Below are positions 12,844 through 26,509 of a stretch of DNA of 64,000 nucleotides, piece by piece. The translations under genes and the position numbers were made by a program. Position 1 is the stretch's first letter, and each line of letters opens with the position of its first letter. This DNA is from an uncultured delta proteobacterium (lineage in GTDB: Bacteria > Myxococcota_A > Polyangia > Polyangiales > Polyangiaceae): contig CAVOKF010000005.1 in the NCBI GenBank assembly GCA_963696385.1, forward strand, positions 1,280,001 through 1,344,000. Direction: 5' to 3'. Under the pieces are notes generated by a model that saw only the letters and a program-made list of their open reading frames with translations, searched no databases and was not told where the DNA came from.

Positions 12844-14046
12844 ATGAGCGCGAATCGAGTCCTGATCGCTACGGCAGTGCTCTCCACGCTGTCCTGGCTT
12901 TTGCATCGGTACGTCTGGGCCCGTCTTCTCCGGGATGGGATGTGGCCGGAGCCGTGGCGCACGGGGCTCACCGTCGGCGTGTTCGCACTGGGCGCGCTGA
13001 TTCCGGTCGCGTTCTTGGCGATACGATTTCTTCCACGCGCGGTCCACGTGCCGATCGCGTGGGTGGCCTACACGTGGATGGGCTTCTTGTTGTACTTGGT
13101 GCTCCTGACGGCGACATTCGACGCGGCGCGCGGTGTCGCCGCTCTCGCGCGGACGCAGCCCCTGGACCCGGAGCGACGTATCGCGTTGTCTCGCGCGATC
13201 GCCAAGATCGTGGTGGCCACGGCGGGTCTGGTTGGACTGGGTGGGATTGCAAACGTGGCGCGCGGGTTCGAGCTGCGCCGAGTGCGGGTGCCCATAGCCA
13301 AGCTGCCTCCGAGTGCGTCCGGCTATTGCATCGTACAGATCACGGACGTGCACGTCGGGCCGACCATCGGTCGAGACTTCGTCGACGCCATGGTGAGGGC
13401 GACCAATGCTCTTGCGCCCGACCTAGTCGTCATCACGGGCGATTTGGTCGACGGAAGCGTCGATCAGCTGCGGCACCTTGTCGAGCCGTTGCGCGATCTG
13501 CGAGCGAAGGACGGGATTTTCTTCGTGACGGGCAATCACGAGTATTATTCTGGTGCGAACGAGTGGATTGCTCATTTGGGGCAACTCGGTATTCGCGTCC
13601 TTCGAAACGAGAGGGTCGCCATCCGCGACGTCTTCGATCTGGCGGGCGTCGACGATGCAAGCGCGAACCGGATGCTGGCCCACCATGGCCAAGACGTGGC
13701 GCGGGCGCTTTCCGGTCGCGACATGGATCGCCCCGTCGTGCTGCTTGCCCACCAGCCGAAGGCACTGAAGGACGCGTTGGCCGCCCGCGTCGACTTGCAA
13801 CTTTCCGGGCACGTGCACGGCGGGCAGATGTTTCCGTTCAACTGGATCGCGCGGATCGATCAGCCACTGATTGCAGGACTCTATCGAGTGGAGCAGACGT
13901 GGGTCTACGTCAGCACGGGGACGGGCTACTGGGGTCCGCCGATGCGGGTCGGCCCCGGGGCAGAGCTTACGCGCATAGAGCTGGTGGCGAGTTCCGATCG
14001 CGATGCCGAGTTGGGTCCACCCTCCGAACGCGAGGCCCTGGGCTAA
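12844..14046 (+). CDS. Membrane-anchored metallophosphoesterase (YkuE-like)
   Basis: N-terminal TMs, then DVH, GDLVD, GNHE and GHVHGGQ motifs. Confidence 0.92.
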   Translation: MSANRVLIATAVLSTLSWLLHRYVWARLLRDGMWPEPWRTGLTVGVFALGALIPVAFLAIRFLPRAVHVPIAWVAYTWMGFLLYLVLLTATFDAARGVAALARTQPLDPERRIALSRAIAKIVVATAGLVGLGGIANVARGFELRRVRVPIAKLPPSASGYCIVQITDVHVGPTIGRDFVDAMVRATNALAPDLVVITGDLVDGSVDQLRHLVEPLRDLRAKDGIFFVTGNHEYYSGANEWIAHLGQLGIRVLRNERVAIRDVFDLAGVDDASANRMLAHHGQDVARALSGRDMDRPVVLLAHQPKALKDALAARVDLQLSGHVHGGQMFPFNWIARIDQPLIAGLYRVEQTWVYVSTGTGYWGPPMRVGPGAELTRIELVASSDRDAELGPPSEREALG

Positions 14047-15785
14047 GCGTCCTCGTCGCCGAAAAGGAAAAGTTGCGGTCCGCTCGCTCGACGGGATCGT
14101 GCGGTCCGACGGGGAGGGGCGTGCTCGCGGTGCCCGGAGGCCACCTGCGCCGCGAAGATCGTCTCCACGGCGGCGATGCCATCGGCCTGCTCGGGAGTCT
14201 TGTCGTCGCGCACGCGTACGATGCGCGGAAACCGTAGTGCAAAGCCGCTCGAGTGGCGCGCGGAGCGCTGGGCGCCGTCGAAGGCGACTTCGATCACCAC
14301 TTCGGGGCGCACGAGCCGAATGCCCGCGCGGACCTCGACCGTGATCGCGACCAGCCGCCGGGTCATCGCATCGATTTCTCGATCGGTCAGGCCACTGTAC
14401 GCCTTGCCGATCGGCACGAGATCGCCGCTTCGCCAGACCGCGAACGTGTAGTCACTGAGGGCCCCGGCCCGCCGCCCGTGTCCCCCTTCTGCAGCGACGA
14501 TGACGACGTCCAACGTCGCATGAGCCCTTTTGACTTTGATCCAAGAATGGCCCCGACTTCCGGCTTCGTAGGGTCCGTCGGCACGCTTGAGGACCAGGCC
14601 TTCGTGGCCTCGAGCCCGCGCAGCGTCGAACGCCGCGTCGAGCGCCCGATCGAGCGATAGATGAGAAGAAAGCTCCGAGAAATCATGGGTGACAATCGCC
14701 GACCGTCGCGTCGCGAGGAGTGCCTCGAGCCGGGCGCGTCAATCGCGCCATGGGAGGTCGAGGATCGACCCCGAAGCATCGGCCAGAAGGTCGAACGCGA
14801 CCAGCGCCACCGGGGTCTGCCGGATGTCTTTCTCCGACGGTCGGGACTTCCTGAGACGCGCCTGCAACACTTGGAAGGGTCTCGGACGCCCGGATGGCCC
14901 GATTGCGACAATTTCGCCGTCGAGGACGAGCGACGTGGCGCAGTCCCGCAGGGCGTCGACGATCTCGGGGAACGCGCGGGTGACCCGATCCAGTCCGCGC
15001 GCAAAAACGGCGACTTCACCGTCGTCCGTCCGGTGGACCTGAGCACGCACGCCGTCGATCTTGTCTTCCACAATGAAGGCGTCGGGCGCGATCGCGGCCG
15101 AGCGGGTCTCGAGCGGTGTCGCGAGCATGAAAGCCACCGGCCGCCCCACTGCGAGGCGGGCTTCGTCGAGTTTGCCCTGATGCGCGAGGACTGCGAGCTC
15201 CCCGACGTCGGCGATGAGTGCGGCGGCTTTCCGCACGAGATCGGGACGGGCTTCGAACGCGCGTGCGATGGCTCCGTGGACGACGCCCTCTTGCGCTCCG
15301 ATGCGCATGCCGCCTCCGAGTGCCTTGGCCAGGTACTTCGTTTCGAGGGGCGTCGCGCGCGCGAAGGTCGCGTCCAGGATGGCACGTTTCGATGCTCTCC
15401 CGGGTTCACTCGCGAGAGCGTCGGCGAGCCGGACGACGTCGGCCAGTCGGACTCCTTCACGCTCCCAAGCCCCCTCGATGCGGCTCGAAAGAAGCGCGAA
15501 CGCTTCGGCCAGCTCGCCTGCCGTGCGCGCGCATGCGACGACGACCGGGTCGTCGAACCCCGTGGCCGCCCGCACGACGTCGAGTAGCAGCGACCCTCCG
15601 ACGCCGAGCGTCCGGCCGTCGCCGATTGGCAGGAGGCGGCCCGCAGCGATGCGGCTCGCCGTTGCGAGCGCCGTCTCGTCGCCTTCGAGAGCAATCTCGC
15701 GAAGGGCGCCCGCAATCGCTTCTTCTTTGCCGATGCGCGATCGCCGAGCTCGGGCTGCATCGAGGGCGGCGGCAAGTCGCCTCAC
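14043..15785 (-). pseudogene. ATP-dependent DNA ligase interrupted by one in-frame TGA (14739-14741); real nonsense mutation or sequence error
   Basis: KIDG, LDGE and AFDLL motifs precede the stop. The same frame continues RARLEALL...EGLVLK...WIKVK...LRFPR to 14043. The GTG start overlaps the upstream stop (GTGA). Confidence 0.9.
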
Positions 15786-16813
15786 GATGACCCTCGGTCG
15801 TCGATCGGTCCGAGCGCGAGGGCGTCGGCATCGACGCCCCGGCGACGGAGCTCGTGAGCCAAAGGTCGAGCCTCGCCGCGCGTCACGTAGACCGATCTCG
15901 CGCCGGACGAGGACACGAGCGCCAGCCACCGATCGAAGTCGGCCTGATCGGCGAACGCGAACCCCGTGTCGGCTTTCTTTTGGGCCAACGCTGCGTCGAG
16001 CACGGCCCAGCCCGAGGCGTAGGCTACGGCGTGTCTCTTCGGGGCCTGCCGTTCGGCCACCCGACTGTCGGGTCGAGCGAGGACGACCGCGCCGCGCCGC
16101 ACCCCCGCGTAGCCTCCAACGACGCCGACGGGAGCCCCGATCGAATCGTACGCCGTGCAGGCGCGCAGGACTTCCGCGTCCGCCACGACGGGCAGCCCGC
16201 GATTCGCGAGCGCGTGTGCGAGCGATTGCGCAGGCCCAGGGCTCTGGACGAGGACGAAGGGCGTGCAGTCCTCGGCGAGACGCGCAGCGCACCACCCGAC
16301 GATGTCCGCAGCGACCCGCTGCATCGGTCTGAAGCGAAAGATCGGAAGGCCGAATGCGGAGGTGATGACCAGCTCGTCGCATGCCACGGCTTCTCCCGGG
16401 GGCCGTGTAGCGTCGGGCTCGCTGCTCCAATCGCCCGTGTAGACCAGGCGTCCGCGAGGATGGTCGATGACCAGCTGTGAGCCGCCGAGGACGTGTCCCG
16501 CACGGGCGATGGACAGCCGGGCCGTGCCGCCGCCGTACCGAGATCCGATGGCCCATGGAATGGTTTCGCCCCAAGCCATGGGGTGCGCTTCCCGGAACGT
16601 CCAGCCGAGCGCCTCCGAGAGCGCGATCGTCTCGGGCGAGGCCAACGCTCTGGTGCCGGTCGCGCTCGCTGCCGCGTGAGCGTGCGAGACGAACACGGCC
16701 GTTTCGGGACCAACGGGCGTCACACCGGTCGGATCGAGCCAGAGATCGAGAGCACGAACGAAGAGTCCGTGGTCACCCAGGACGACACCGAGCGGTCCGC
16801 CTCGGGTGCTCAC
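15782..16813 (-). CDS. Ligase-associated MBL-fold / beta-CASP exonuclease-like protein
   Basis: LWLDP, SHAH, AGHVLG, YTGD, FGLPIFRF and ASGW motifs; translationally coupled to the ligase. Confidence 0.85.
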   Translation of the reverse strand: MSTRGGPLGVVLGDHGLFVRALDLWLDPTGVTPVGPETAVFVSHAHAAASATGTRALASPETIALSEALGWTFREAHPMAWGETIPWAIGSRYGGGTARLSIARAGHVLGGSQLVIDHPRGRLVYTGDWSSEPDATRPPGEAVACDELVITSAFGLPIFRFRPMQRVAADIVGWCAARLAEDCTPFVLVQSPGPAQSLAHALANRGLPVVADAEVLRACTAYDSIGAPVGVVGGYAGVRRGAVVLARPDSRVAERQAPKRHAVAYASGWAVLDAALAQKKADTGFAFADQADFDRWLALVSSSGARSVYVTRGEARPLAHELRRRGVDADALALGPIDDRGSS

Positions 16814-17231: not shown

Positions 17232-18098
17232 TCAGCGGGAGAGCACCCAAAAGACGACCAGGCCAGCAGCAATTCGGTACCAGCCGAAAGGCTCGAGCCC
17301 GTGCTTGCGCAGGTACTTGAGGAAGCTGGCGATCACGGCCCAAGCGACGAAAAACGAAACGACGAGACCGACCGCGAGGCTGACCCCTCCGACGCGGGAC
17401 GCGAGGTCCGCGCGCGCCTTGTATCCTTCGAACAGCGTCGCCGCGCCCAGCGTGGGCAGCGCGAGCAGGAACGAAAACTCCGCCGCCGTCGCGGTCGACA
17501 GTCCGGCGAGTTGTCCCGCGACGATGGTGCACATGGATCGGGAAGCGCCGGGCCACAGCGACAGGCATTGACCCAAGCCCACCGCCAGCGCCCGTTTGGG
17601 CGTCACCTTGTCCAGCCCGTCTTCGCCGCTGCCGAAGGTGTCCGGCGGATGAACGCCCCGGTTGCGACGCCCGACCCAGCGCTCGATCAGGATCATCGCA
17701 ACGCCCCCGACGACGAGCGCGGCGGTGACGGGAATCGGCCCGAACAGGCGGGCCTTGATCGTCTTGCGCAGGAGCAGACCGGCGACGGCGGTCGGCGCGA
17801 ACGCCACGGCGAGGGCGGTGAGCAATTGGAACGAGGCCGCATCGCGCGCCGCGAGCCCTCGAAGTTTTTGACCGAGGAGCGTCCAATAGTGTGCCACCAC
17901 GGCGAGGATGGCTCCGAGCTGAACCACGATTTCGAACGAAGACGTCGCGGGGTCATCGTCGCTCAAGCCGAGCAGGTGACCCACCAGAACGAGGTGCCCC
18001 GTCGAAGAGATCGGGAGATATTCGGTCAACCCTTCGACGATGCCGAGCAGGACCGCAATCTTCGGGTCGCGCGCAGTCGCCGCGGCGTGCAAAGGCAT
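17232..18098 (-). CDS. uppP: Undecaprenyl-diphosphate phosphatase
   Basis: EGLTEYLPISSTGH, QLGAIL, PGASRS and AAEFSFLL motifs. Confidence 0.96.
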   Translation of the reverse strand: MPLHAAATARDPKIAVLLGIVEGLTEYLPISSTGHLVLVGHLLGLSDDDPATSSFEIVVQLGAILAVVAHYWTLLGQKLRGLAARDAASFQLLTALAVAFAPTAVAGLLLRKTIKARLFGPIPVTAALVVGGVAMILIERWVGRRNRGVHPPDTFGSGEDGLDKVTPKRALAVGLGQCLSLWPGASRSMCTIVAGQLAGLSTATAAEFSFLLALPTLGAATLFEGYKARADLASRVGGVSLAVGLVVSFFVAWAVIASFLKYLRKHGLEPFGWYRIAAGLVVFWVLSR

Positions 18099-18427
18099 GG
18101 GGGCTTTCCACGTAGCACGACGCCATCACGGGGAAGGGGAATCCGAATGCGGTCCTTTCGGGGACGCACCGCGTTTCCCGCATGCCGCCGTGCGTCGAGG
18201 CATCCGACTCCACCGAGAGTTGGCAAGGAGGGGGTCTGGCGCCGATGTCATGGGGTGCGCCTGCCGAGTCTTTTTGAAGATCGGACCGGGCTTTTCGGTT
18301 ATACCAACCGGCGCCGGGCGGTCGGACTCCGTGGCGGGGATCGATGAGCTGGCGGGCCTCTGGCCTGTCGTTCGCTGCGGGGGCAGCATCGACTCGGTCT
18401 TGGCCACTCGCCGAAAGGGAAACGTTC

Positions 18428-19354
18428 ATGTTCAACAAGCCTCTCTCCTTAGCTGTCACGATCCTGGGAACGACCGTCTTTGCCTGGATGGCGGCTTGCT
18501 CGTCGTCCAAAGAGTCGACAGACAACAGCAGCAGCAACACGGGTGGCGCCACGAGCAGCAGCAGCAGCAGCACCTCATTGGGCAGCGGCACGAGCAGCAG
18601 CAGCAGCGGCACGGGCAGTTCCGGTACGAGCAGCACGGGCGCAAGCGGCGATGGGGGCTCCAGCCCGCTCCAAATCGACAACCAGTCGGCGGCTGTGGGC
18701 TCCCAGCTCCAGTTTGGATCGAGTGTGAAGGCGCTGGTCCCGTCCGGCGACAAAATCGGCACCTGGTACACGTACGGCTGGAACGCGGCGGCCGGCCAGA
18801 CACTGACACCGGCCCAAGGGGCACCGTTCAGCTTCACGACGACCACGGGCATGTTCACGCGGGCCGCCTGCGTCAGCTCGGCGGGCTATGTCGGATACTC
18901 GGCGGGCGAGGGCTTCAACTTCGCGACGGCCGACGTCGACTCTTCGAACCCGCCGGCCGTGCCGTTGAACGTGAGCAGCTTCACGGGCATCACCTTCTGG
19001 GCCATGAGTACGACTACGGGAACACCGATGGTTCGGGTAAAGTTCCCCGACGATCAGACGTACGGGTCGGATCCGACCGCGCTCTGCCAACCAGATGCGT
19101 CGCTTCCGACGGGAGACACGGCCGGGCAATGCGATGACGACTTCTGCGATAACGTGACGCTGACGTCGTCATGGACCCAAGTGTCGATCCTCTTTTCTAA
19201 TTTGAACCAGAGCAGCTTCGGTGCCACTTTCCCCGGCGGTCTCGATACGAAGAACGTGTTCGGCATCCAGTTCGAGAATGAAGGCGGAGGGACCACCGAC
19301 GCGGGCGCGCCGGGGTTCCAGTACTGCATCGCGGACATCAACTTCACGCAATAG
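18428..19354 (+). CDS. Lipoprotein with Ser/Gly/Thr linker and a probable carbohydrate-binding jelly-roll domain
   Basis: Signal peptide with lipobox MAAC, poly-Ser tracts (AGC repeats), then SFTGITFWA...WTQVSILFSNL...GIQF...IADINF, resembling CBM11/CIA30-type domains (inference). Confidence 0.75.
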   Translation: MFNKPLSLAVTILGTTVFAWMAACSSSKESTDNSSSNTGGATSSSSSSTSLGSGTSSSSSGTGSSGTSSTGASGDGGSSPLQIDNQSAAVGSQLQFGSSVKALVPSGDKIGTWYTYGWNAAAGQTLTPAQGAPFSFTTTTGMFTRAACVSSAGYVGYSAGEGFNFATADVDSSNPPAVPLNVSSFTGITFWAMSTTTGTPMVRVKFPDDQTYGSDPTALCQPDASLPTGDTAGQCDDDFCDNVTLTSSWTQVSILFSNLNQSSFGATFPGGLDTKNVFGIQFENEGGGTTDAGAPGFQYCIADINFTQ

Positions 19355-19371
19355 GTCCGACGGGCGCCACG

Positions 19372-20076
19372 ATGCGACCCACTCACGCGACGAGCTCGAC
19401 GACCGAATCGAGCCCGTCGCGCAGTTCGCGCCAAGACGCTACCCTCGGCGCCGTGTCGACTGCCTCCGTGCCGTTGGTCACGCGACTTTGGTTCGCGTGG
19501 CTCTGCTTCTTTAAGGTTCTTTTCGATGGACGCTTTGCGTCTCGAGCGTGGGATGCTCGGGACGCACACCGTCTGCCGCCGCCGCCGACGGTGTCTGGGC
19601 GTTCCGCCTCGCCCGCCGTGGGGTCGCGGGTCCCGGATCTCGAGAGTCGTGTCGCGAGCTCAGGCGCACTGCGCGACTCGGCCTCGTCCGCGCCGTCGGC
19701 GACCGCGGCCCTTCAGCTCCTGTCGCTTTTGCAGTCTGAAGGGCGGCTTGTCGACTTCCTCGAGCAAGACGTCGCCGCGTTCTCGGATACCGATGTCGGC
19801 ATCGCCGCGCGGGTGGTGCACGAGGGTTGCCGTCGGGCTCTGCGTGCCCACGCGAGGGTCGAGCCGGTGCGGCCGGAAGGCGAGGGGCAGCGGATCACGT
19901 TGGCCGCGGGTTTCGATGCCGATGCCGTGAAGCTGGTTGGCGACGTGAAGGGGCAGCCGCCGTTCGTCGGTGTCCTGCGGCACAGAGGGTGGCGGGTCCT
20001 AACGATCGAGCTGCCGCAACGCGTGGGCGAGCATGACCCCCGCATCGTAGCGCCGGCCGAAATCGAGCTCGAGTGA
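19372..20076 (+). CDS. DUF2760 domain protein (possibly GrpE-like)
   Basis: ALQLLSLLQSEGRLVDFLEQD...DVGIAARVVHEGC...GVLRHRGW...APAEIEL; hydrophobic N-terminal helix; stop overlaps the next start. Confidence 0.85.
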   Translation: MRPTHATSSTTESSPSRSSRQDATLGAVSTASVPLVTRLWFAWLCFFKVLFDGRFASRAWDARDAHRLPPPPTVSGRSASPAVGSRVPDLESRVASSGALRDSASSAPSATAALQLLSLLQSEGRLVDFLEQDVAAFSDTDVGIAARVVHEGCRRALRAHARVEPVRPEGEGQRITLAAGFDADAVKLVGDVKGQPPFVGVLRHRGWRVLTIELPQRVGEHDPRIVAPAEIELE

Positions 20077-21896
20077 TGCGCTTCGCTGCCGGGATCGACC
20101 TGGGCACCACGCACTGCGCGATCGCGGTCGCCCCTCTCGAAGTCGAAGGCGCGCGGCCGGACGTGGTGAGCGTCCCGCAGCTCGTCGCGCGGGGACAGGT
20201 CGAAGCTCTCGCGCTTTTGCCCTCATTTCTCTATTTCGCGCATGCGAGCGAAGGCCCGCAGGCGTTGCCCTGGGACGCCCATCGCGCGTTCGCCGTAGGG
20301 CAGTACGCCCGCGCCCGAGGGGCCGACGCGCCGACGCGTGTCGTCGCGAGCGCCAAGAGCTGGTTGTCGCATCCGTCCGTCGATCGCCGCGCGGGAATTC
20401 TTCCGGTCGGCGCGCCGGACGACGTCGCGAAGATCTCTCCCGTCGAGACCTCGAAGAGGTACCTCGATCATCTCGTGCAGGCGTTTGAGGCCCAGTTCGG
20501 AGCGGACGACCGCCTGACCGATCAGGACGTCATCGTAACCGTGCCTGCGTCCTTCGACGCCGGGGCGCGCGAGCTGACGGTTGAAGCAGCCCGACAGGCC
20601 GGGTTCGAGCACCTCACGCTGCTCGAGGAGCCGCAGGCGGCCCTCTACGCCTGGACGCTCGCGATGGGCGATGCATGGCGCTCCCACGTGCGGCCGGGCG
20701 ACGTCGTGCTGGTGATCGACGTGGGCGGCGGAACGACGGACTTTTCGGCGATCGCTGCAATCGAGAAGGACGGTGCGCTCGAACTGGTGCGCGTTGCCGT
20801 GGGCGATCACATCCTGCTGGGCGGCGACAACATGGACCTCGCGTTGTCCCACCTCGTGCGCCAAAAGCTCGAATCCGAGGGGCGTGTTGTCGATCGCTTC
20901 CAAGCTGCGAGTCTGGTCCACGCGTGTCGGGTCGCGAAGGAGCGTCTCCTGGGCGATGCGTCGCTCGACCTCGCGCCCCTCGCCGTGGCTTCGCGGGGGT
21001 CGTCTCTGCTCGGCGCGACGCTTCGTTGCGACCTGACCCGCGACGACTTGACCCGTGTCCTTGTCGATGGCTTTTTTCCCCGCGTCGATGCCGAGGCTCG
21101 ACCGGCGACACGATCGCGCTCCGGGCTGACGCAGCTCGGGTTGCCCTATGCGGCCGACGCGGCCGTGACGCGCCATCTCGCTGCATTTCTCGGCCGGCAG
21201 GCGCGCGCGCTCGAGCACTTCGCCGGATCGGCCGGCCGCGCGGGCGGCGCCCTTTTGCACCCGACCGCCGTTCTCTTCAACGGCGGTGTGATGAAATCCG
21301 CCAGTCTGCGGGCGCGAGTGATCGAAACACTGAACGCGTGGATCCAAGAAGACGGGGGCGATGTCGTCCGCGTTCTGCAGGGCGCCGACCTCGACCTCGC
21401 GGTGGCTCGGGGCGCTTGCATGTACGCCCTCGTCCGCCGCGGCAAGGGGCTCCGCATTCGGGGAGGGACGGCTCGTGCCTATTACGTCGGAATCGAGAGC
21501 GCCGTCCCGGCAGTCCCCGGTCTCGCGCCTCCCGTGAGCGCGATGTGCGTGGCGCCATTCGGCATGGAAGAGGGGACCGCCGCCGAGCTTCCGCCCCATG
21601 AGCTCGGCGTGGTCGTCGGCGAGCGCTGCACGTTTCGGTTCTTCGGATCGAGCGTACGGCGGTCCGACGGAGCCGGAACCATGCTCGAAGAGTGGCGAGC
21701 CGACGAGCTCGAGGAGCTCCCGCCCATCGAGGTTACGCTTCCTGCGGACGGACGTCGCGAAGGAGACGTCGTGCCCGTGCGACTCCGACCGCAGGTGACC
21801 GAGGTCGGGACGCTGCGGCTGGAGGCCGAGCCGCTAGCGCCGCTCAAGGCCGGCGAACTGTGGCGCGTCGAGCTGAGCGTTCGCTCGAACGCCTGA
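20076..21896 (+). CDS. Non-canonical Hsp70-family ATPase
   Basis: GIDLGTT, TVPASFD, EEPQAA, DVGGGTTD, GGDNMD, NGG and AVARGA motifs; TGATG overlap with the DUF2760 gene (GTG 20073 is an alternative start). Confidence 0.92.
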   Translation: MRFAAGIDLGTTHCAIAVAPLEVEGARPDVVSVPQLVARGQVEALALLPSFLYFAHASEGPQALPWDAHRAFAVGQYARARGADAPTRVVASAKSWLSHPSVDRRAGILPVGAPDDVAKISPVETSKRYLDHLVQAFEAQFGADDRLTDQDVIVTVPASFDAGARELTVEAARQAGFEHLTLLEEPQAALYAWTLAMGDAWRSHVRPGDVVLVIDVGGGTTDFSAIAAIEKDGALELVRVAVGDHILLGGDNMDLALSHLVRQKLESEGRVVDRFQAASLVHACRVAKERLLGDASLDLAPLAVASRGSSLLGATLRCDLTRDDLTRVLVDGFFPRVDAEARPATRSRSGLTQLGLPYAADAAVTRHLAAFLGRQARALEHFAGSAGRAGGALLHPTAVLFNGGVMKSASLRARVIETLNAWIQEDGGDVVRVLQGADLDLAVARGACMYALVRRGKGLRIRGGTARAYYVGIESAVPAVPGLAPPVSAMCVAPFGMEEGTAAELPPHELGVVVGERCTFRFFGSSVRRSDGAGTMLEEWRADELEELPPIEVTLPADGRREGDVVPVRLRPQVTEVGTLRLEAEPLAPLKAGELWRVELSVRSNA

Positions 21897-21910
21897 GCGA
21901 GAGGGGCGCG

Positions 21911-24643
21911 ATGTCGGCTCGTTACGCCGTAGGCATCGACCTCGGCACGACGCATACCGTGGTGGCCTGGGCGCCTCTCGAGGGGGCCGATACGCCGCGT
22001 GTTTTCGACGTTTCCCAGCTTGTCGGACCGAGTGCGGTCGAACAGCGACCGCTATTTCCATCCATGCTTTACGCGCCGGCCGAGAGCGAACGGTTCGAGG
22101 ATCCGTTCGGCGACGCCCCATGGGCGCTCGGCGAAATAGCGCGGTGTCGCGGCGCGGAAGTCCCGGGACGCACCGTCGTATCGGCGAAAAGCTGGCTCGT
22201 CCATCCAAGCGTGGATCGGCTGGCCGCCATTTTGCCATGGGCCGCCGCGGAAGGGTGCCCCCGCTGCTCGCCGGTCGACGCGGTGGCCCGACTGCTCGTG
22301 CACGTGCGCCGTGCGTGGGATGCTCGCTGGCCGGCCTCGCCGCTCAGCGAACAGGAACTGGTGCTGACCGTTCCTGCGTCGTTCGACGAAGTCGGCCGAG
22401 AGCTCTCGCTCGAGGCCGCGCGGCGTGCCGGCCTTTCGCCCAAGCTACTCGAGGAGCCGTCGGCGGCCTTTTACGACTGGATGTCGCGTGCCGGCACGGA
22501 CGGGGTCAATCGCCTGATCCACGAAATGTCCGGCGACGCGAGGGTGCTCGTGGTCGACGTCGGTGGAGGCACGACGGACTTGTCCCTGATTCGTGTGGCC
22601 GGGCCCGACCGAATCACCCGAGTCGCGGTCGGACCGCATCTGCTGCTGGGGGGCGACAACATGGATCTGGCGATCGCACACGCAACCGAGCCCCGGCTCC
22701 AGGCGACAGGCAAGCTCGATGCGTCGCGTTTCGCACAGTTGGTCGTCGCGTGCCGGGCCGCCAAAGAGACGTTGCTGGGCGATGGTTCGCCGGAGGTGGC
22801 GCCGGTCACCGTGCTCGGGGCCGGCGCGGCCCTGGTGGGGTCCGGCCGCTCCACGCCTCTGTTGCGCCACGAGGTCGAGCGACTCGTGCTCGATGAGTTC
22901 CTTCCGCTCGTTCCGGCCGATGCCCGGCCGCAGCGCGCGCGCAGTGCGCTCGTTGCGTTCGGGCTGCCTTACGAGCGCGACGCAGCGGTCACGCGCCACA
23001 TCGCGGCGTTTCTCGGCCGGCACGTGGGCCCCGGACAATGGCCGAACGCCGTTCTTCTGAATGGCGGGGTTTTCCGATCGGCGCGCATCGCCGGTCGGGT
23101 TCTCGAGGTCCTTCGCGCTTGGCGGGGCGGCGTCGTGGCGCATTTGCCCGGCGCGGACCCCGATTTCGCCGTGGCGTGCGGAGCGGTCGCTTACGCACGG
23201 GCTCGCCTTGGCCACGGCATGCGCATCGGCGGTGGCTCGGCGCGCGGCTACTTCGTCGGAGTGACGGCGGAGGGGCCTTGCCCCCGCGCGGTTTGCGTCA
23301 TCCCGCGTGGCGCCGAGGAGGGAGCGGTCCACGTGGCCCGCGGCCGAACGTTCGCCATCGCCGTCGGGCGGCCCGTCCGCTTCGATCTTTTCGAGAGCGA
23401 TGACGTCCATGCAAGTGCGGGCGCTGTCGTCGAGGTGGACTCCGTCCGCTTCGCGCGTTTGCCTCCGATCGCCACGACCTTCGCGGCCGGGGTCGCAGGC
23501 GACGTCCGCGTCGTCATCGAGGGAGAGCTTACGCCCGTCGGCACCGTCGATCTGGCGTGCGTCGAGACGAGCGATCCCAGCGAAGGCGGCGCCAGGACGG
23601 TCCTAGCTCCGATGGCGGATGAGCCTGCGGCGCGCCGATTCCGGCTCGCCTTTCAGCTTCGCCGTGACGAGGGGGAACCGGCGAGTCGCCCGCCGTTACC
23701 CGTGCCACTGCGGCGGATGGACACGGTGATCGATTTGATTGAAGGCGTGTACGGAAAACCCCGCGGCGGCGGGGCCGGACGCGAAGTCAAAGACCTGCTG
23801 CGCGAGCTCGAACGCCTGCTTGGCGAGCGCAGCGAATGGACCACCGAGATCAACCGCGCGATTGTCGACTCTCTAGCCCCGAAGGCCGCCGCGCGCCGCC
23901 GCTCTGCCGACCACGAGCGCATTTTCTGGCTGCTCGCCGGCTGGTGCATTCGCCCTGGTTTTGGCTATCCGGACGACGCGGCTCGAGTCGCCGGGCTTGT
24001 CCCGCGCTTCGAGGAACGACTCGCCTTTGCGGGTGAGGTTCGTGGCTGGCAGCAATTTTGGATCGCCTGGCGGCGCGTCGCGGGTGGGCTCGACGAGCCG
24101 ACGCAGACTCGGATGCGCGACAGCGTCGACCCGTACCTCGCGCCTTCGGACGCGAGGCGGCGTCCGAAGAAGGCGTGGCTGGCGCTCGACGAAGCGCTCG
24201 ACATGGCCGCGACTCTCGAGCGGGTTGCTCCCGCTCGTCGCGCGGAGCTCGGCGGGTGGGTCCTGGAGCGCACGTGGACCGATCGCGATCCACGTTTGTG
24301 GTCCGCCATCGGTCGGCTCGGCGCGCGGGCTCCGGCCTATGCGAGCGTCCACCACGTGGTCGCACCGCTCGTCGCGGAGCGGTGGCTGGATCATCTGCTG
24401 CGCGAGAAGTGGGGCTCGATTCCCACGGCCGTGCAAGCGGCGCTTCGGCTCGCGCGCATGACCGGCGACCGCTCGCGCGACATCGACGAACGGATGCGCC
24501 GCGAAGTCGAGCAGCGCCTCATGGCGGCAGGCGCGAAGCCTGAGCAGGTCATCACGCTGCGAGAAGTCGTGCCGATCGACGAGATCGAGCGGGTCGCGTT
24601 TCTTGGCGACGCGCTACCGCTCGGGTTGCGGTTGGTCCGCTAG
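21911..24643 (+). CDS. Non-canonical Hsp70-family ATPase with C-terminal DUF3731-like helical domain
   Basis: Same ATPase motifs as the upstream paralog plus a Trp-rich tail (FWLLAGWCIRPGFGYPDD, WSAIGRLGARAP); GAGG RBS before ATG 21911. Confidence 0.9.
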   Translation: MSARYAVGIDLGTTHTVVAWAPLEGADTPRVFDVSQLVGPSAVEQRPLFPSMLYAPAESERFEDPFGDAPWALGEIARCRGAEVPGRTVVSAKSWLVHPSVDRLAAILPWAAAEGCPRCSPVDAVARLLVHVRRAWDARWPASPLSEQELVLTVPASFDEVGRELSLEAARRAGLSPKLLEEPSAAFYDWMSRAGTDGVNRLIHEMSGDARVLVVDVGGGTTDLSLIRVAGPDRITRVAVGPHLLLGGDNMDLAIAHATEPRLQATGKLDASRFAQLVVACRAAKETLLGDGSPEVAPVTVLGAGAALVGSGRSTPLLRHEVERLVLDEFLPLVPADARPQRARSALVAFGLPYERDAAVTRHIAAFLGRHVGPGQWPNAVLLNGGVFRSARIAGRVLEVLRAWRGGVVAHLPGADPDFAVACGAVAYARARLGHGMRIGGGSARGYFVGVTAEGPCPRAVCVIPRGAEEGAVHVARGRTFAIAVGRPVRFDLFESDDVHASAGAVVEVDSVRFARLPPIATTFAAGVAGDVRVVIEGELTPVGTVDLACVETSDPSEGGARTVLAPMADEPAARRFRLAFQLRRDEGEPASRPPLPVPLRRMDTVIDLIEGVYGKPRGGGAGREVKDLLRELERLLGERSEWTTEINRAIVDSLAPKAAARRRSADHERIFWLLAGWCIRPGFGYPDDAARVAGLVPRFEERLAFAGEVRGWQQFWIAWRRVAGGLDEPTQTRMRDSVDPYLAPSDARRRPKKAWLALDEALDMAATLERVAPARRAELGGWVLERTWTDRDPRLWSAIGRLGARAPAYASVHHVVAPLVAERWLDHLLREKWGSIPTAVQAALRLARMTGDRSRDIDERMRREVEQRLMAAGAKPEQVITLREVVPIDEIERVAFLGDALPLGLRLVR

Positions 24644-25189
24644 CGCGGCGCCGAGTCGACGGCGCTCGAAGACGATCATCTCGCCCATCGTCTCGTGCTC
24701 ACGAGTGCCGATTCGTGTCATGCCCACTTTCTCGAGGACGCGCACCGACGCGCGATGCCACCCAAACGTCGCGGCTTGCACCGCGTGCACCCCGCGCTGA
24801 TCGAGCGCCCAGCACACGCATGCGCCAACGGCCTCGGTTGCGTATCCATAGCCCTGCGACCCTTCTTCGACGCCGTAAGCAATCTCCGAGATACCTTGGT
24901 CGTCCGGTTCGCCGCGGAACACGACGCTTCCGACCACCCGCCGATGGCCTGGTTCGGTCGCCACAATGATGACGCGGGCTCCCCAAAGACGGGCTGCGGG
25001 ATCGGCTCGGATGTCGTCGAGGGACACGGCAAACGCGCGCTCGATGAGCTCGCGGTTGGGCCAGCGCTCCGGCATCCGGGCGAACGCGAGCGACTCCGCG
25101 TCGTCACGGCGGCCGAGCAGAACGGCCTCGACCATCGCCACGGTCACGGGAAGCAACTGAAGTCGCGGTGTTCGAAGATACGCGGTCAT
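24614..25189 (-). CDS. GNAT N-acetyltransferase (RimJ/RimL-like)
   Basis: LRTPRLQL, EIAYG, QGYGYATEA and ASVRVLEKVGM motifs. Confidence 0.9.
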   Translation of the reverse strand: MTAYLRTPRLQLLPVTVAMVEAVLLGRRDDAESLAFARMPERWPNRELIERAFAVSLDDIRADPAARLWGARVIIVATEPGHRRVVGSVVFRGEPDDQGISEIAYGVEEGSQGYGYATEAVGACVCWALDQRGVHAVQAATFGWHRASVRVLEKVGMTRIGTREHETMGEMIVFERRRLGAALADQPQPER

Positions 25190-25219
25190 GCGCCGTGCCG
25201 GCGCATCGACGATACCGGG

Positions 25220-26509
25220 TTACCCGACGCCAGCCCAGCCCTTGACGACGTCGTCGAGACGGCGCTGCTCGTCCTCCTCGAGCAGCCCAACCGCGACGAC
25301 GCTCAGGCACTCGGGTCGTGCCAATCGGCGTGCGGCCTCGCATACTTCGCTGGCCGTCACCCGAACGAGCTCCGCGACGTGCTCTTCGACGGTGACAAAA
25401 CGGTCGAACAGAAGCCCTGCGGCGAAGAATGCGGACGTCTCTTCCGTCGAGTCGGCCAGCGCGCTCGCATCCCATGCGATTCTGCGCCGGATCCTGTCGA
25501 GTTCGTCGTCGGTCGGACCGTCCGATGCCAGCTCGCCGAACATGGCGAGGATTTCCCCTGCTACCCGCGCGGCGCGCTTGTGTTGCACCCCTGCGGCCAC
25601 GTCGACGACCCCGTCGTCTTCATAACCATCGTATCCGGCGGACACGTCGTAGCAGAGGCCGCGCGCATCGCACAGACGATGGTACAGACGCGTGGACATG
25701 CCATCGTCGATGACCCGCATCAATACGTCGAGAGCCGGTCGGTCCGGATCCGTCTCCGAGAATGCGCGTAGGCAAACGCGCAGTTCCGTCTGGCTCGACA
25801 CGCTCTCGACCACCTCGAGTCGAGCTTTTTTTTGCGTATGCGGCGGCGCCGCCGCGTGGATGCGCGCGCCCCGGGGCAGGCCCCCGAAGTCGCGCGCCGC
25901 CAGGCGCATCGCCTCGTCGACGTCGACGGCACCGGAGAACGCGAGAACGACGTTGTCGGCCGTATAGTGGATCGCGTGATGCTTGCGCAGCGTGGCCTCG
26001 TCGAACGCGCGCACTTGAGCCTCGTGGCCTGTGATTGTGAGTCCGAGCGGGTGGTCGCCGTAGATGAGCGCACGCGAGAGATTGTCTGCGTCGACCTGAC
26101 GGCCCTCGTCATCGACGTCTTCGAGGATTTCCTCGAGCACGATGCCGCGCTCGATGTCGATGTCCAAAAAAGCCGGTTCTGAGAGCACCTCACCGAACAA
26201 GCCGCAGGCCTCTTCGAGCGAGTCAGGAGGCAGTGTGAGCGAGAAGATCCCGTGGTCTACCTGAGTCGACGCAAAGAGCGAGCCGCCCAAGCGCTCGAAA
26301 GCGAGGTTGACTTCATGGGCGCTCGGCACACGACGGGTCCCTCGGTAGATCATGTGCTCGAGGAAATGGCCGATTCCGTTCGTCGCGCGGGTCTCGTAGC
26401 GTGACCCGACGCGTGTCCAAAGCCCGACGTGAGCTCGATGAAGCCGCGGTTGCGGTGCGGCGACGACTTGGATTCCGTTCGGCAGGACGGCGCGTCGGTG
26501 CTCGATCAC
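25220..26509 (-). CDS. M16 (pitrilysin) family zinc peptidase
   Basis: LPNG, GSRYE, HFLEH inverted zinc motif, STRLY...RGLCY; GTG start inferred. Confidence 0.92.
   Translation of the reverse strand: MIEHRRAVLPNGIQVVAAPQPRLHRAHVGLWTRVGSRYETRATNGIGHFLEHMIYRGTRRVPSAHEVNLAFERLGGSLFASTQVDHGIFSLTLPPDSLEEACGLFGEVLSEPAFLDIDIERGIVLEEILEDVDDEGRQVDADNLSRALIYGDHPLGLTITGHEAQVRAFDEATLRKHHAIHYTADNVVLAFSGAVDVDEAMRLAARDFGGLPRGARIHAAAPPHTQKKARLEVVESVSSQTELRVCLRAFSETDPDRPALDVLMRVIDDGMSTRLYHRLCDARGLCYDVSAGYDGYEDDGVVDVAAGVQHKRAARVAGEILAMFGELASDGPTDDELDRIRRRIAWDASALADSTEETSAFFAAGLLFDRFVTVEEHVAELVRVTASEVCEAARRLARPECLSVVAVGLLEEDEQRRLDDVVKGWAGVG

Follow-up and report, generated by a model that had tools for sequence, protein, structure and literature searches.

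A widespread gene cassette encoding a DUF2760 protein and two non-canonical Hsp70 paralogues in Myxococcota and Proteobacteria: a candidate dedicated Hsp70-type machine

In a stretch of 64,000 nt from the genome of an uncultured delta proteobacterium of the Polyangiaceae (GenBank assembly GCA_963696385.1, contig CAVOKF010000005.1, positions 1,280,001 to 1,344,000; hereafter the window), three head-to-tail open reading frames (ORFs) on the + strand encode a DUF2760 protein (gene 1), an Hsp70-type protein of 606 residues (Hsp70A, gene 2) and a second one of 910 residues with a DUF3731 tail (Hsp70B, gene 3). This trio is a genuine copy of a widespread operon, and the explanation we favour, with a probability of about 0.55, is that it encodes a dedicated twin-Hsp70 machine in which the DUF2760 protein serves as a specific adaptor or co-factor. 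Few protein machines are understood as well as Hsp70 systems, whose cycle is generally held to depend on a J-protein and, in bacteria, also on GrpE. The cassette is a distinct variant of such a system, and the window contains one more copy of it. Coordinates given below are positions within the window unless another contig or locus is indicated; those of the cassette features are collected in Table 1.

The initial annotation of this DNA described the three genes as tightly coupled, and both junctions on which that description was based are seen in the sequence. The last base of the TGA stop codon of gene 1 (20074-20076) is also the first base of the ATG of gene 2 (TGATG), an alternative GTG start of gene 2 at 20073 giving the 4-nt overlap that is common in relatives, and the TGA of gene 2 (21894-21896) is separated from gene 3 by a gap of exactly 14 nt. 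Gene 1 would encode 234 residues from the ATG at 19372 or 207 residues from a GTG at 19453; the latter is probably its true start, because homologues begin near residue ~28 of gene 1, where this GTG lies. The G+C content around the trio is ~65-70%. All three proteins were assigned to families with Pfam (Table 1), and in NCBIfam the HscA and DnaK matches were far below threshold and gene 1 had no match of any kind. A promoter and terminator scan of 19000-25300 was uninformative, with 0 promoter-like sites and 3 terminator-like sites compared with 3.5 expected.

Table 1. Position and basis of the features of the DUF2760-Hsp70A-Hsp70B cassette in the window
Feature	Position	Strand	Basis
Gene 1, DUF2760 protein	19372..20076	+	ORF and translation; PF10816 (DUF2760), 161.7 bits (cut-off 25)
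Conserved hydrophobic/amphipathic N-terminal helix, residues ~33-64, core LVTRLWFAWLCFFKVLFDGRFA	19468..19563	+	AlphaFold2 helices 35-51 and 53-64, pLDDT 91-95
Low-complexity linker of variable length, residues ~65-110	19564..19701	+	pLDDT 50-75, no secondary structure; gapped alignment
DUF2760 domain, residues 111-232	19702..20067	+	Pfam; protein ends APAEIELE
Gene 2, Hsp70A	20076..21896	+	ATG 20076, 606 residues; PF00012 (HSP70), E 2e-19, confined to residues 5-325
Hsp70A C-terminal domain, residues 457-606, begins RIRGGTARAYYVG	21444..21893	+	Translation; motif nearly invariant
Gene 2/3 spacer, 14 nt, purine-rich, gcgagaggggcgcg	21897..21910	+	Read directly
Gene 3, Hsp70B with DUF3731 tail	21911..24643	+	ATG 21911, 910 residues; PF00012, E 8e-11, residues 7-288; PF12531 (DUF3731), 239.9 bits (cut-off 25), residues 665-908
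Hsp70B predicted beta-rich domain, residues ~435-580	23213..23650	+	AlphaFold2 model m0f24014760e4, ~10 strands at model residues 31-137
Hsp70B predicted armadillo/HEAT-like solenoid, residues ~600-898	23708..24604	+	AlphaFold2, 15 helices, pLDDT mostly 90-98
Pfam DUF3731 within solenoid	23903-24634	+	PF12531

The conservation of this gene arrangement goes far beyond chance. Profile matches over the cut-off were counted in a sample of 401 genomes of the phylum: DUF2760 was present in 72 and DUF3731 in 72, with 71 genomes carrying both, and the two exceptions (G395 and G337) have their match close to a contig end, at no more than about 3.9 kb and 0.3 kb from it. A sub-cut-off DUF3731 match in G138 and second fragments in G380, G116 and G400 were left out of this co-occurrence count. 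The two domains lie on the same contig in 62 genomes, always on the same strand and with DUF2760 upstream of DUF3731, and on different contigs in the other 9 of the 71. Their spacing is 3.68-4.53 kb in 52 of the 62 genomes, a distance that one Hsp70 gene and the Hsp70 portion of the following gene would fill, and 5-28 kb in the remaining 10. Each of the 72 positive genomes has a single cassette (the match in G230 is one locus in two adjacent pieces), and the cassette is vertically stable within families, being carried for instance by 24 of the 29 genomes of the family to which the window belongs. Neither DUF2760 nor DUF3731 was found in 14 control genomes, E. coli among them.

A scan of species genomes gave 593 relatives, the best 80 of which were used as a locus set. 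These loci belong to Myxococcota (Polyangiaceae and others), Betaproteobacteria (Comamonas, Thauera, Azoarcus, Aromatoleum, Zoogloea, Accumulibacter and Propionivibrio), Gammaproteobacteria (Competibacteraceae, Methylococcaceae and Chromatiales) and Syntrophobacteraceae, with one further record labelled Bdellovibrionales bacterium. Hsp70A is found directly 3' of DUF2760 in 77 of the 80 loci; two of the remaining three have no room for it, and the third (L055) does have an Hsp70A, slightly below the 48% identity cut. Start and stop codons of the first two genes overlap by 4 nt in 46 of 69 called pairs. The position of Hsp70B was counted in the 63 loci with enough DNA, and the DUF3731 gene lies within 4.7 kb in 51 of them, 7.3 kb away in one and divergently upstream in two. 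These results bear out the linkage of the trio, for which the initial annotation had proposed a gene-neighbourhood survey. No conserved fourth gene could be identified among the 80 loci, the commonest other family being Ser/Thr kinases (16/80). In loci without an adjacent Hsp70B the downstream genes are mixed (transglutaminase-like, kinase, redoxin, MgtE, DEAD helicase, LysR); Ser/Thr kinase genes were noticed right after or near Hsp70A in two of them, L083 (10092-11114) and L033 (12798-13673). At the level of families, DUF2760 comprises 1,788 clusters at 50% identity (E<=1e-3), and all 120 Hsp70B homologues listed combine PF12531 with PF00012.

Judged from their sequences, Hsp70A and Hsp70B have a complete DnaK-like nucleotide-binding domain in which the ATPase motifs are intact. 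Every ATPase motif quoted in the initial annotation could be located in both translations (GIDLGTTH, SAKSWL, LLEEP and DVGGGTTD), and little or no variation is seen among 72 Hsp70A and 62 Hsp70B sequences in the catalytic Lys, the glutamates of EEP or the DxGGGTxD loop, with K94, E184, E185, D215, G217-219, T220 and D222 of Hsp70A invariant in its 72 orthologues. When these orthologues were compared by hhalign with the five DnaK-like proteins of the host, residues 3-456 of Hsp70A were aligned with DnaK 3-377 at a probability of 99.7%. The five host paralogues have a linker of the (D/E)VLLLDV type. The position of the DVLLLD linker of DnaK is occupied by GLRIRGGTARAYYVG in Hsp70A and by GMRIGGGSARGYFVG in Hsp70B, both following the pattern G-x-G-x-R-I-x-G-G-(T/S)-A-R-x-Y, which is conserved across orthologues; the replacement of the canonical linker in both proteins, as previously described, was thus confirmed.

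Residues ~2-582 of the Hsp70A of the window show 37-49% identity in tblastn to the Hsp70B genes of related loci, which indicates that Hsp70A and Hsp70B are paralogues. They very probably act as a pair, in agreement with the heteromeric Hsp70 pair suggested in the initial annotation, and this is supported by two natural single-chain fusions, P0291 (1536 residues) and P0295 (1499 residues), in which a full Hsp70A orthologue (64% identity) is followed by a full Hsp70B orthologue. Only these two fusions were accepted. Open frames of 1,379-1,581 residues suggesting A-B fusions in G212, G237, G122, G061, G152 and G137 were not counted; those of G212 and G061 were checked, and in both there is a separate Hsp70A ORF, the Hsp70B frame being simply open upstream as an artefact of the high G+C content. 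At these two loci (L131, G212:C240, 1338-5726; L132, G061:C65, 1396-5598) the Hsp70B frame is open for 1,400-1,460 codons across the Hsp70A gene. P0295 may lie on one contig with P0394, a DUF2760 fusion protein described below, the longest contigs of the two being equal in length (281,241).

Hsp70A ends ~150 residues past its nucleotide-binding domain, and this C-terminal part gave no hhalign match to the substrate-binding domain of DnaK. The part of Hsp70B that is homologous to it is predicted to be a beta domain. In the AlphaFold2 model of Hsp70B residues 416-910 (62 sequences; mean predicted local distance difference test score, pLDDT, 85.9; predicted template modelling score 0.70), three parts succeed one another: the beta domain, a disordered stretch and a solenoid of 15 helices. 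Foldseek searches with this C-terminal part returned substrate-binding domains of Hsp70, DnaK, HscA and BiP at E ~1e-2 and probabilities of 0.82-1.00, and designed armadillo proteins at E 2e-3, with nothing at E<=1e-3; a second VIA search, aimed at a Z value for the basket-like domain, gave rows dominated by armadillo/HEAT proteins and no such value. On this weak evidence, the modelled beta domain is taken as a probable counterpart of the Hsp70 substrate basket. No helical lid was seen in the sequence of Hsp70A or in the model of Hsp70B, in keeping with the absence of a recognisable lid reported at the outset: Hsp70A stops early, and the beta domain of Hsp70B precedes the disordered stretch and the solenoid.

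The tail of Hsp70B had been described as a Trp-rich helical domain. Its helices and its Trp content stand (12 Trp in the last ~310 residues by manual count), with the correction that the region is catalogued in Pfam as DUF3731 and is predicted to form an armadillo/HEAT-like solenoid. In VIA the solenoid matched importin beta (Z 14.3), CAND1 (14.2), designed armadillo proteins (13.2-14.0) and importin-4 (13.3), and the HspBP1 core (1xqr_A) was found at rank 10 with Z 12.1 and a root mean square deviation (rmsd) of 5.1 over 228 aligned residues, Z values under about 13 being common among helical repeats. On the basis of the model we interpret the tail no further than as a solenoid of armadillo/HEAT type; this kind of fold typically holds extended peptides or partner proteins. 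Look-ups of the DUF3731 tail and the DUF2760 domain in the ESM Atlas gave no usable match.

As for the DUF2760 protein, its AlphaFold2 model (130 sequences, mean pLDDT 84.2) consists of an N-terminal helix pair (residues 35-64), a disordered linker and a C-terminal domain (residues 110-234, pLDDT >=92) with three helices and four short strands. The hydrophobic N-terminal helix pointed out in the initial annotation is present and conserved across homologues, with a motif close to phi-x-x-R-phi-x-x-A-x-x-x-F-F-R-V-L-F-D-G-x-F-A that is kept across the 64 sequences listed. Its median best 19-residue Kyte-Doolittle mean is 1.53, Arg and Asp being conserved inside, and its insertion into a membrane is plausible. 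Invariant residues of the DUF2760 domain are Q121, R125, D128, F129, H150, G190, G200, H204, G206, W207 and A229, and C153 is nearly so. The H150-x2-C153 motif and the distant invariant H204 (window ~19819-19986) could, by our own reasoning, constitute a metal-binding or redox-sensitive site.

The position of the domain within the protein is equally constant. Among the 150 representatives listed, 146 have it reaching the C-terminus or stopping no more than 3 residues short of it. Of 40 tails listed, 38 close with A(P/Q/A/E)AE(V/I/L)E(L/V/I), and the other two with PAEVAL and AARVEL. Two larger proteins, both single-member clusters, likewise have DUF2760 at their C-terminal end: in P0393 (493 residues) it is preceded by a Ser/Thr kinase domain, and in P0394 (509 residues) by TPR repeats instead. 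P0395 and P0396, in which DUF2760 has a truncated or unmatched tail, were left out of the interpretation. A fixed C-terminal domain combined with a varied N-terminal part is what characterises adaptors whose targeting part can be exchanged.

The trio is single-copy in the host genome (G000, 6.9 Mb in 8 contigs), where a whole-genome search placed the DUF2760 domain at G000:C5:1299702-1300067 and the DUF3731 domain at G000:C5:1303903-1304634. The same genome has 15 HSP70 matches, corresponding to about a dozen genes, together with 2 GrpE and 12 J-domain matches. None of the latter two groups falls within the window, so that the lack of a DnaJ or GrpE gene nearby, noted initially, holds at the level of the whole window, and no protein of the trio matches the J domain (PF00226) at E<=0.01. 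Four other Hsp70 paralogues of the host adjoin a J-domain gene and a fifth one adjoins a J-domain gene just under the Pfam cut-off (C3:367.5-370.5, C7:955.6-958.3, C8:299.0-301.0, C8:574.1-576.9 and C4:1059.4-1061.8 kb); one of these clusters additionally has a second, divergent GrpE-like gene. The trio has no such neighbour; the place where one would look for a dedicated co-factor is taken by DUF2760.

Previous work bears on one gene that appears to belong to a cassette of this kind. In a study of Hsp70 homologues in Myxococcus xanthus (Pan et al., 2021; PMC8265645), MXAN_5321, MXAN_5322 and MXAN_5323 are given as a DUF2760 protein (627 nt), an Hsp70 family protein (1863 nt) and an hsp70 family protein of 925 residues, adjacent on one strand and 25 nt apart. 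Their order and sizes match those of the trio in the window, and a Myxococcus locus of our set (L065) has the same layout; on these grounds of annotation, size and order we infer that they are orthologous to it. Expression values reported there for MXAN_5321/5322/5323, in fragments per kilobase of transcript per million mapped reads, are ~70/70/60 under normal growth and ~81/116/40 after heat shock; by contrast, the main text names MXAN_5323 as one of two hsp70 exceptions to an 'unchanged or decreased' response to heat shock (PMC8265645). The same source describes the MXAN_5323 deletion mutant as viable, with normal motility, predation and growth at high or low temperature and at high osmolarity, and with mildly reduced sporulation and survival to peroxide, the same mild defects being observed for three other non-canonical Hsp70s; MXAN_5323 does not rescue an E. 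coli dnaK deletion (PMC8265645). The normal growth of the mutant across temperatures and this lack of rescue suggest that the cassette would not be general heat-shock gear. MXAN_5323 is treated there as one of many Hsp70 homologues, and the MXAN_5321 and MXAN_5322 tags are absent from the main text searched (PMC8265645). A full-text literature search retrieved no paper for DUF2760, DUF3731, PF10816 or PF12531, and a search for an atypical bacterial Hsp70 operon returned nothing. The earlier statement that no function had been assigned to the trio is therefore valid in that the two domains are unnamed in the literature searched, and needs amending in that MXAN_5323 has been deleted and phenotyped (PMC8265645).

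Based on these data, we propose that the three genes form one operon for a self-contained, specialised Hsp70-type machine. Hsp70A and Hsp70B would be paralogous ATPases with an RIxGGxARxY segment, a beta domain where the basket would be and no lid, working as a pair to which Hsp70B would contribute the armadillo/HEAT-like solenoid. DUF2760 would be the dedicated partner, its C-terminal domain with the free AEVEL tail meeting the Hsp70 pair and its hydrophobic N-terminal helix placing or aiming the machine, and it would fill the role that a J-protein, an exchange factor or a tether has for ordinary Hsp70s. The ATP cycles would probably be used to hold or remodel a particular client or a membrane-associated assembly, and not for the general refolding of heat-damaged proteins.

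Several observations weigh against this proposal. Gene linkage is the sole indication of a contact between DUF2760 and the Hsp70s. The N-terminal helix, in which Arg and Asp are conserved, is of no more than borderline hydrophobicity, so that a membrane anchor is a tentative assignment. Structure searches gave no informative match for the DUF2760 fold (none in Foldseek at E 1e-3, and a best VIA Z of 4.8 that involves helices only), the beta domain bears a weak likeness to a substrate basket (E ~1e-2 in Foldseek, nothing in hhalign), and the armadillo/HEAT match is generic for helical repeats. In addition, the phenotype of the MXAN_5323 mutant is mild, common to three unrelated Hsp70 paralogues, and points to no specific client (PMC8265645). 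Finally, Hsp70B is missing within 8 kb in 9 of 63 loci, and it is on another contig in the 9 of 71 genomes mentioned above, so the third gene is less tightly tied than the first two.

The role given to DUF2760 in the initial annotation was that of a GrpE-like, membrane-associated exchange factor, opening the Hsp70 nucleotide cleft and speeding ADP release. Such a role would suit a small protein that is co-encoded and translationally coupled with an Hsp70, in a neighbourhood with no GrpE gene, and eukaryotes have membrane-anchored exchange factors, such as the BAG protein Snl1. The model also loosely recalls the GrpE layout, with helices at 110-160 and then four short strands forming a small beta region, and GrpE from Thermus (3a6m_A) is found at rank 3 in Foldseek, far from significant (E 0.76, probability 0.18, 119 columns, 23% identity) and with template modelling scores of 0.22/0.28 and an rmsd of 13.9. 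However, no GrpE family of Pfam or NCBIfam matches DUF2760 at E<=0.01, a PDB sequence search gave no GrpE and a profile search none at E<=10, and none is among the 50 rows listed by either VIA search. The hhalign comparison of 130 DUF2760 proteins with 31 GrpE proteins of the phylum gave a probability of 0.29% (E 0.21) over just 10 columns, which fall in the helical part, outside the segment previously aligned. The claim that the DUF2760 C-terminus follows the GrpE beta-domain is therefore not sustained; the likeness is one of general layout at most, and we consider a GrpE-like exchange factor unlikely. A different possibility is that exchange or holdase activity resides within the pair, with Hsp70B acting on Hsp70A like Hsp110 on Hsp70, nucleotide-binding domains face to face, or through its tail like HspBP1/Fes1, and DUF2760 being only a tether or regulator. 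Two diverged paralogues that co-occur and are fused in some relatives, a long tail unique to Hsp70B and the presence of the HspBP1 core among the matches of that tail would be in line with it, and a recent review describes precedents both in the Hsp70-Hsp110 pair and in armadillo-type exchange factors (PMC13580251). Yet unrelated armadillo/HEAT proteins match as well as HspBP1 by the dozen, the sequences match none of the exchange-factor families, and both Hsp70s keep all catalytic motifs, neither looking like a degenerate regulator; we regard this explanation as doubtful. A bolder form, which we regard as tentative at best, combines a twin-Hsp70 machine independent of J-proteins and GrpE, a built-in exchange factor or holdase in Hsp70B and, in DUF2760, a new class of co-chaperone whose exchangeable N-terminal part tethers the pair to a membrane or client; if true, bacteria would have their own equivalent of the eukaryotic Hsp70-Hsp110/HspBP1 arrangement.

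The relation between the partners could also be reversed, DUF2760 being the controlled element of a signalling switch in which the Hsp70 pair, upon a stress or density signal, holds or releases either DUF2760 itself or a protein attached to its N-terminal part. The kinase and TPR versions of that N-terminal part (P0393 and P0394), the kinase genes in the 16 neighbourhoods already mentioned and the H150-x2-C153 and H204 residues, which we suggest could bind metal or sense oxidation, would fit a switch of this kind, as would the peroxide sensitivity of the MXAN_5323 mutant (PMC8265645). In Vibrio cholerae, the promoter of VC1375 is reported to be directly activated by the quorum regulator HapR (PMC10328515), and VC1373-1375 are listed as an operon in PMC9201469, with VC1374 as a 'DnaK-related protein' repressed in biofilm; the identification of VC1373-1375 as a cassette is by annotation and not by sequence comparison. 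Nevertheless, the fusions to a kinase and to TPR repeats each form a cluster with one member only, myxobacterial genomes have so many kinases that their adjacency may be due to chance, Pfam reveals no DNA-binding or sigma/anti-sigma domain in the trio, and the metal site is putative; we find a switch quite improbable. Still less credit can be given to the idea that the two ATPases are actin-like polymerising or membrane-remodelling proteins recruited by DUF2760 and not chaperones. They do match MreB_Mbl in Pfam (E 3.5e-8 for Hsp70A; E 6e-5 for Hsp70B, 22.5 bits against a cut-off of 27) and their partner has a hydrophobic helix, but these matches are much weaker than those to Hsp70, with Hsp70B under the cut-off, the entire nucleotide-binding domain aligns to DnaK at the probability given above, and it is followed by a basket-like beta domain. 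The least probable explanation, to our judgement, is an anti-phage or conflict system built on Hsp70-like ATPases. The distribution of the cassette, patchy within the phylum (72/401 genomes) and extending to Beta- and Gammaproteobacteria, could be that of a defence system, and PADLOC-DB 2.0 gave a weak match to the candidate family PDC-M61B (E 2e-4 for Hsp70A and 5e-3 for Hsp70B). These matches span just 22-91 residues around an ATPase motif, no other defence-system match was obtained for the trio in that database, and DUF2760 had none. Further arguments against defence are the housekeeping neighbours in the window (BacA, M16 peptidase, PpiD-like rotamase and glutamine synthetase), the absence from the trio of a nuclease, protease or other effector domain in Pfam, the single cassette per positive genome and its vertical stability, as in the family of the window.

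Compared with known systems, the cassette we interpret as a dedicated twin-Hsp70 machine shares with DnaK-DnaJ-GrpE an Hsp70-type nucleotide-binding domain with its catalytic motifs, a beta domain after it and a small co-encoded partner. It differs in having two paralogous Hsp70s in place of one, in lacking the DVLLLD linker and the lid, in the absence of J-domain and GrpE genes from both operon and window, and in a partner, DUF2760, for which no relationship to either GrpE or DnaJ could be detected. The Hsp70-Hsp110 and HspBP1/Fes1 systems resemble it in the pairing of an Hsp70 with a diverged paralogue and in the association of an armadillo-like solenoid with an Hsp70. Nonetheless, no sequence relation to them was detected, the structural match is generic, and the solenoid of the cassette is fused to an Hsp70 and not free; Hsp110, moreover, keeps a lid and an extended basket, both missing from the cassette Hsp70s. 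HscC and YegD of E. coli ('DnaK derivates') are also non-canonical Hsp70 relatives with a shortened or missing lid, but they are not a paralogue pair with DUF2760 and have no DUF3731. HscC uses a J-protein. A 2026 review describes these derivates as unexplored, HscC retaining a shortened lid and YegD consisting of the nucleotide-binding domain alone (PMC13580251). As to the Pfam entries themselves, the window proteins are clear members of PF10816 (DUF2760) and PF12531 (DUF3731, 'DNA-K related protein'), which are catalogue entries with no function attached.

In the surroundings of the trio, the gene for BacA/UppP (17232-18098) lies upstream on the - strand, and a Ser-rich ORF on the + strand (18344-19354), with a lipoprotein-like signal (AWMAACSSS) and no Pfam match, ends 17 nt before the ATG of gene 1 and 98 nt before the likelier GTG. 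Downstream, on the - strand, there are genes for an M16 peptidase and a PpiD/SurA-like rotamase, and glutamine synthetase is also among the neighbours in the window. The genes around the trio show no sign of a mobile element or defence island. Farther upstream, at 14043-16574 on the - strand, an ATP-dependent DNA ligase is apparently split over two frames, the N-terminal domain (DNA_ligase_A_N) and part of the adenylation domain (DNA_ligase_A_M, positions 2-134 of 204) being in an ORF ending at 14739 and the C-terminal OB domain (DNA_ligase_A_C) in the ORF 14043-14513, as a result of either a frameshift or a sequencing error.

The cassette is present in about 18% of the sampled genomes of the phylum and in many Beta- and Gammaproteobacteria, and it brings together two lid-less Hsp70s and a partner of unmatched fold, with no J-domain or GrpE gene of its own. 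Solving its cycle would show whether other helpers can drive Hsp70 ATPases, and solving the cassette as a whole would give a function to two Pfam DUF families.

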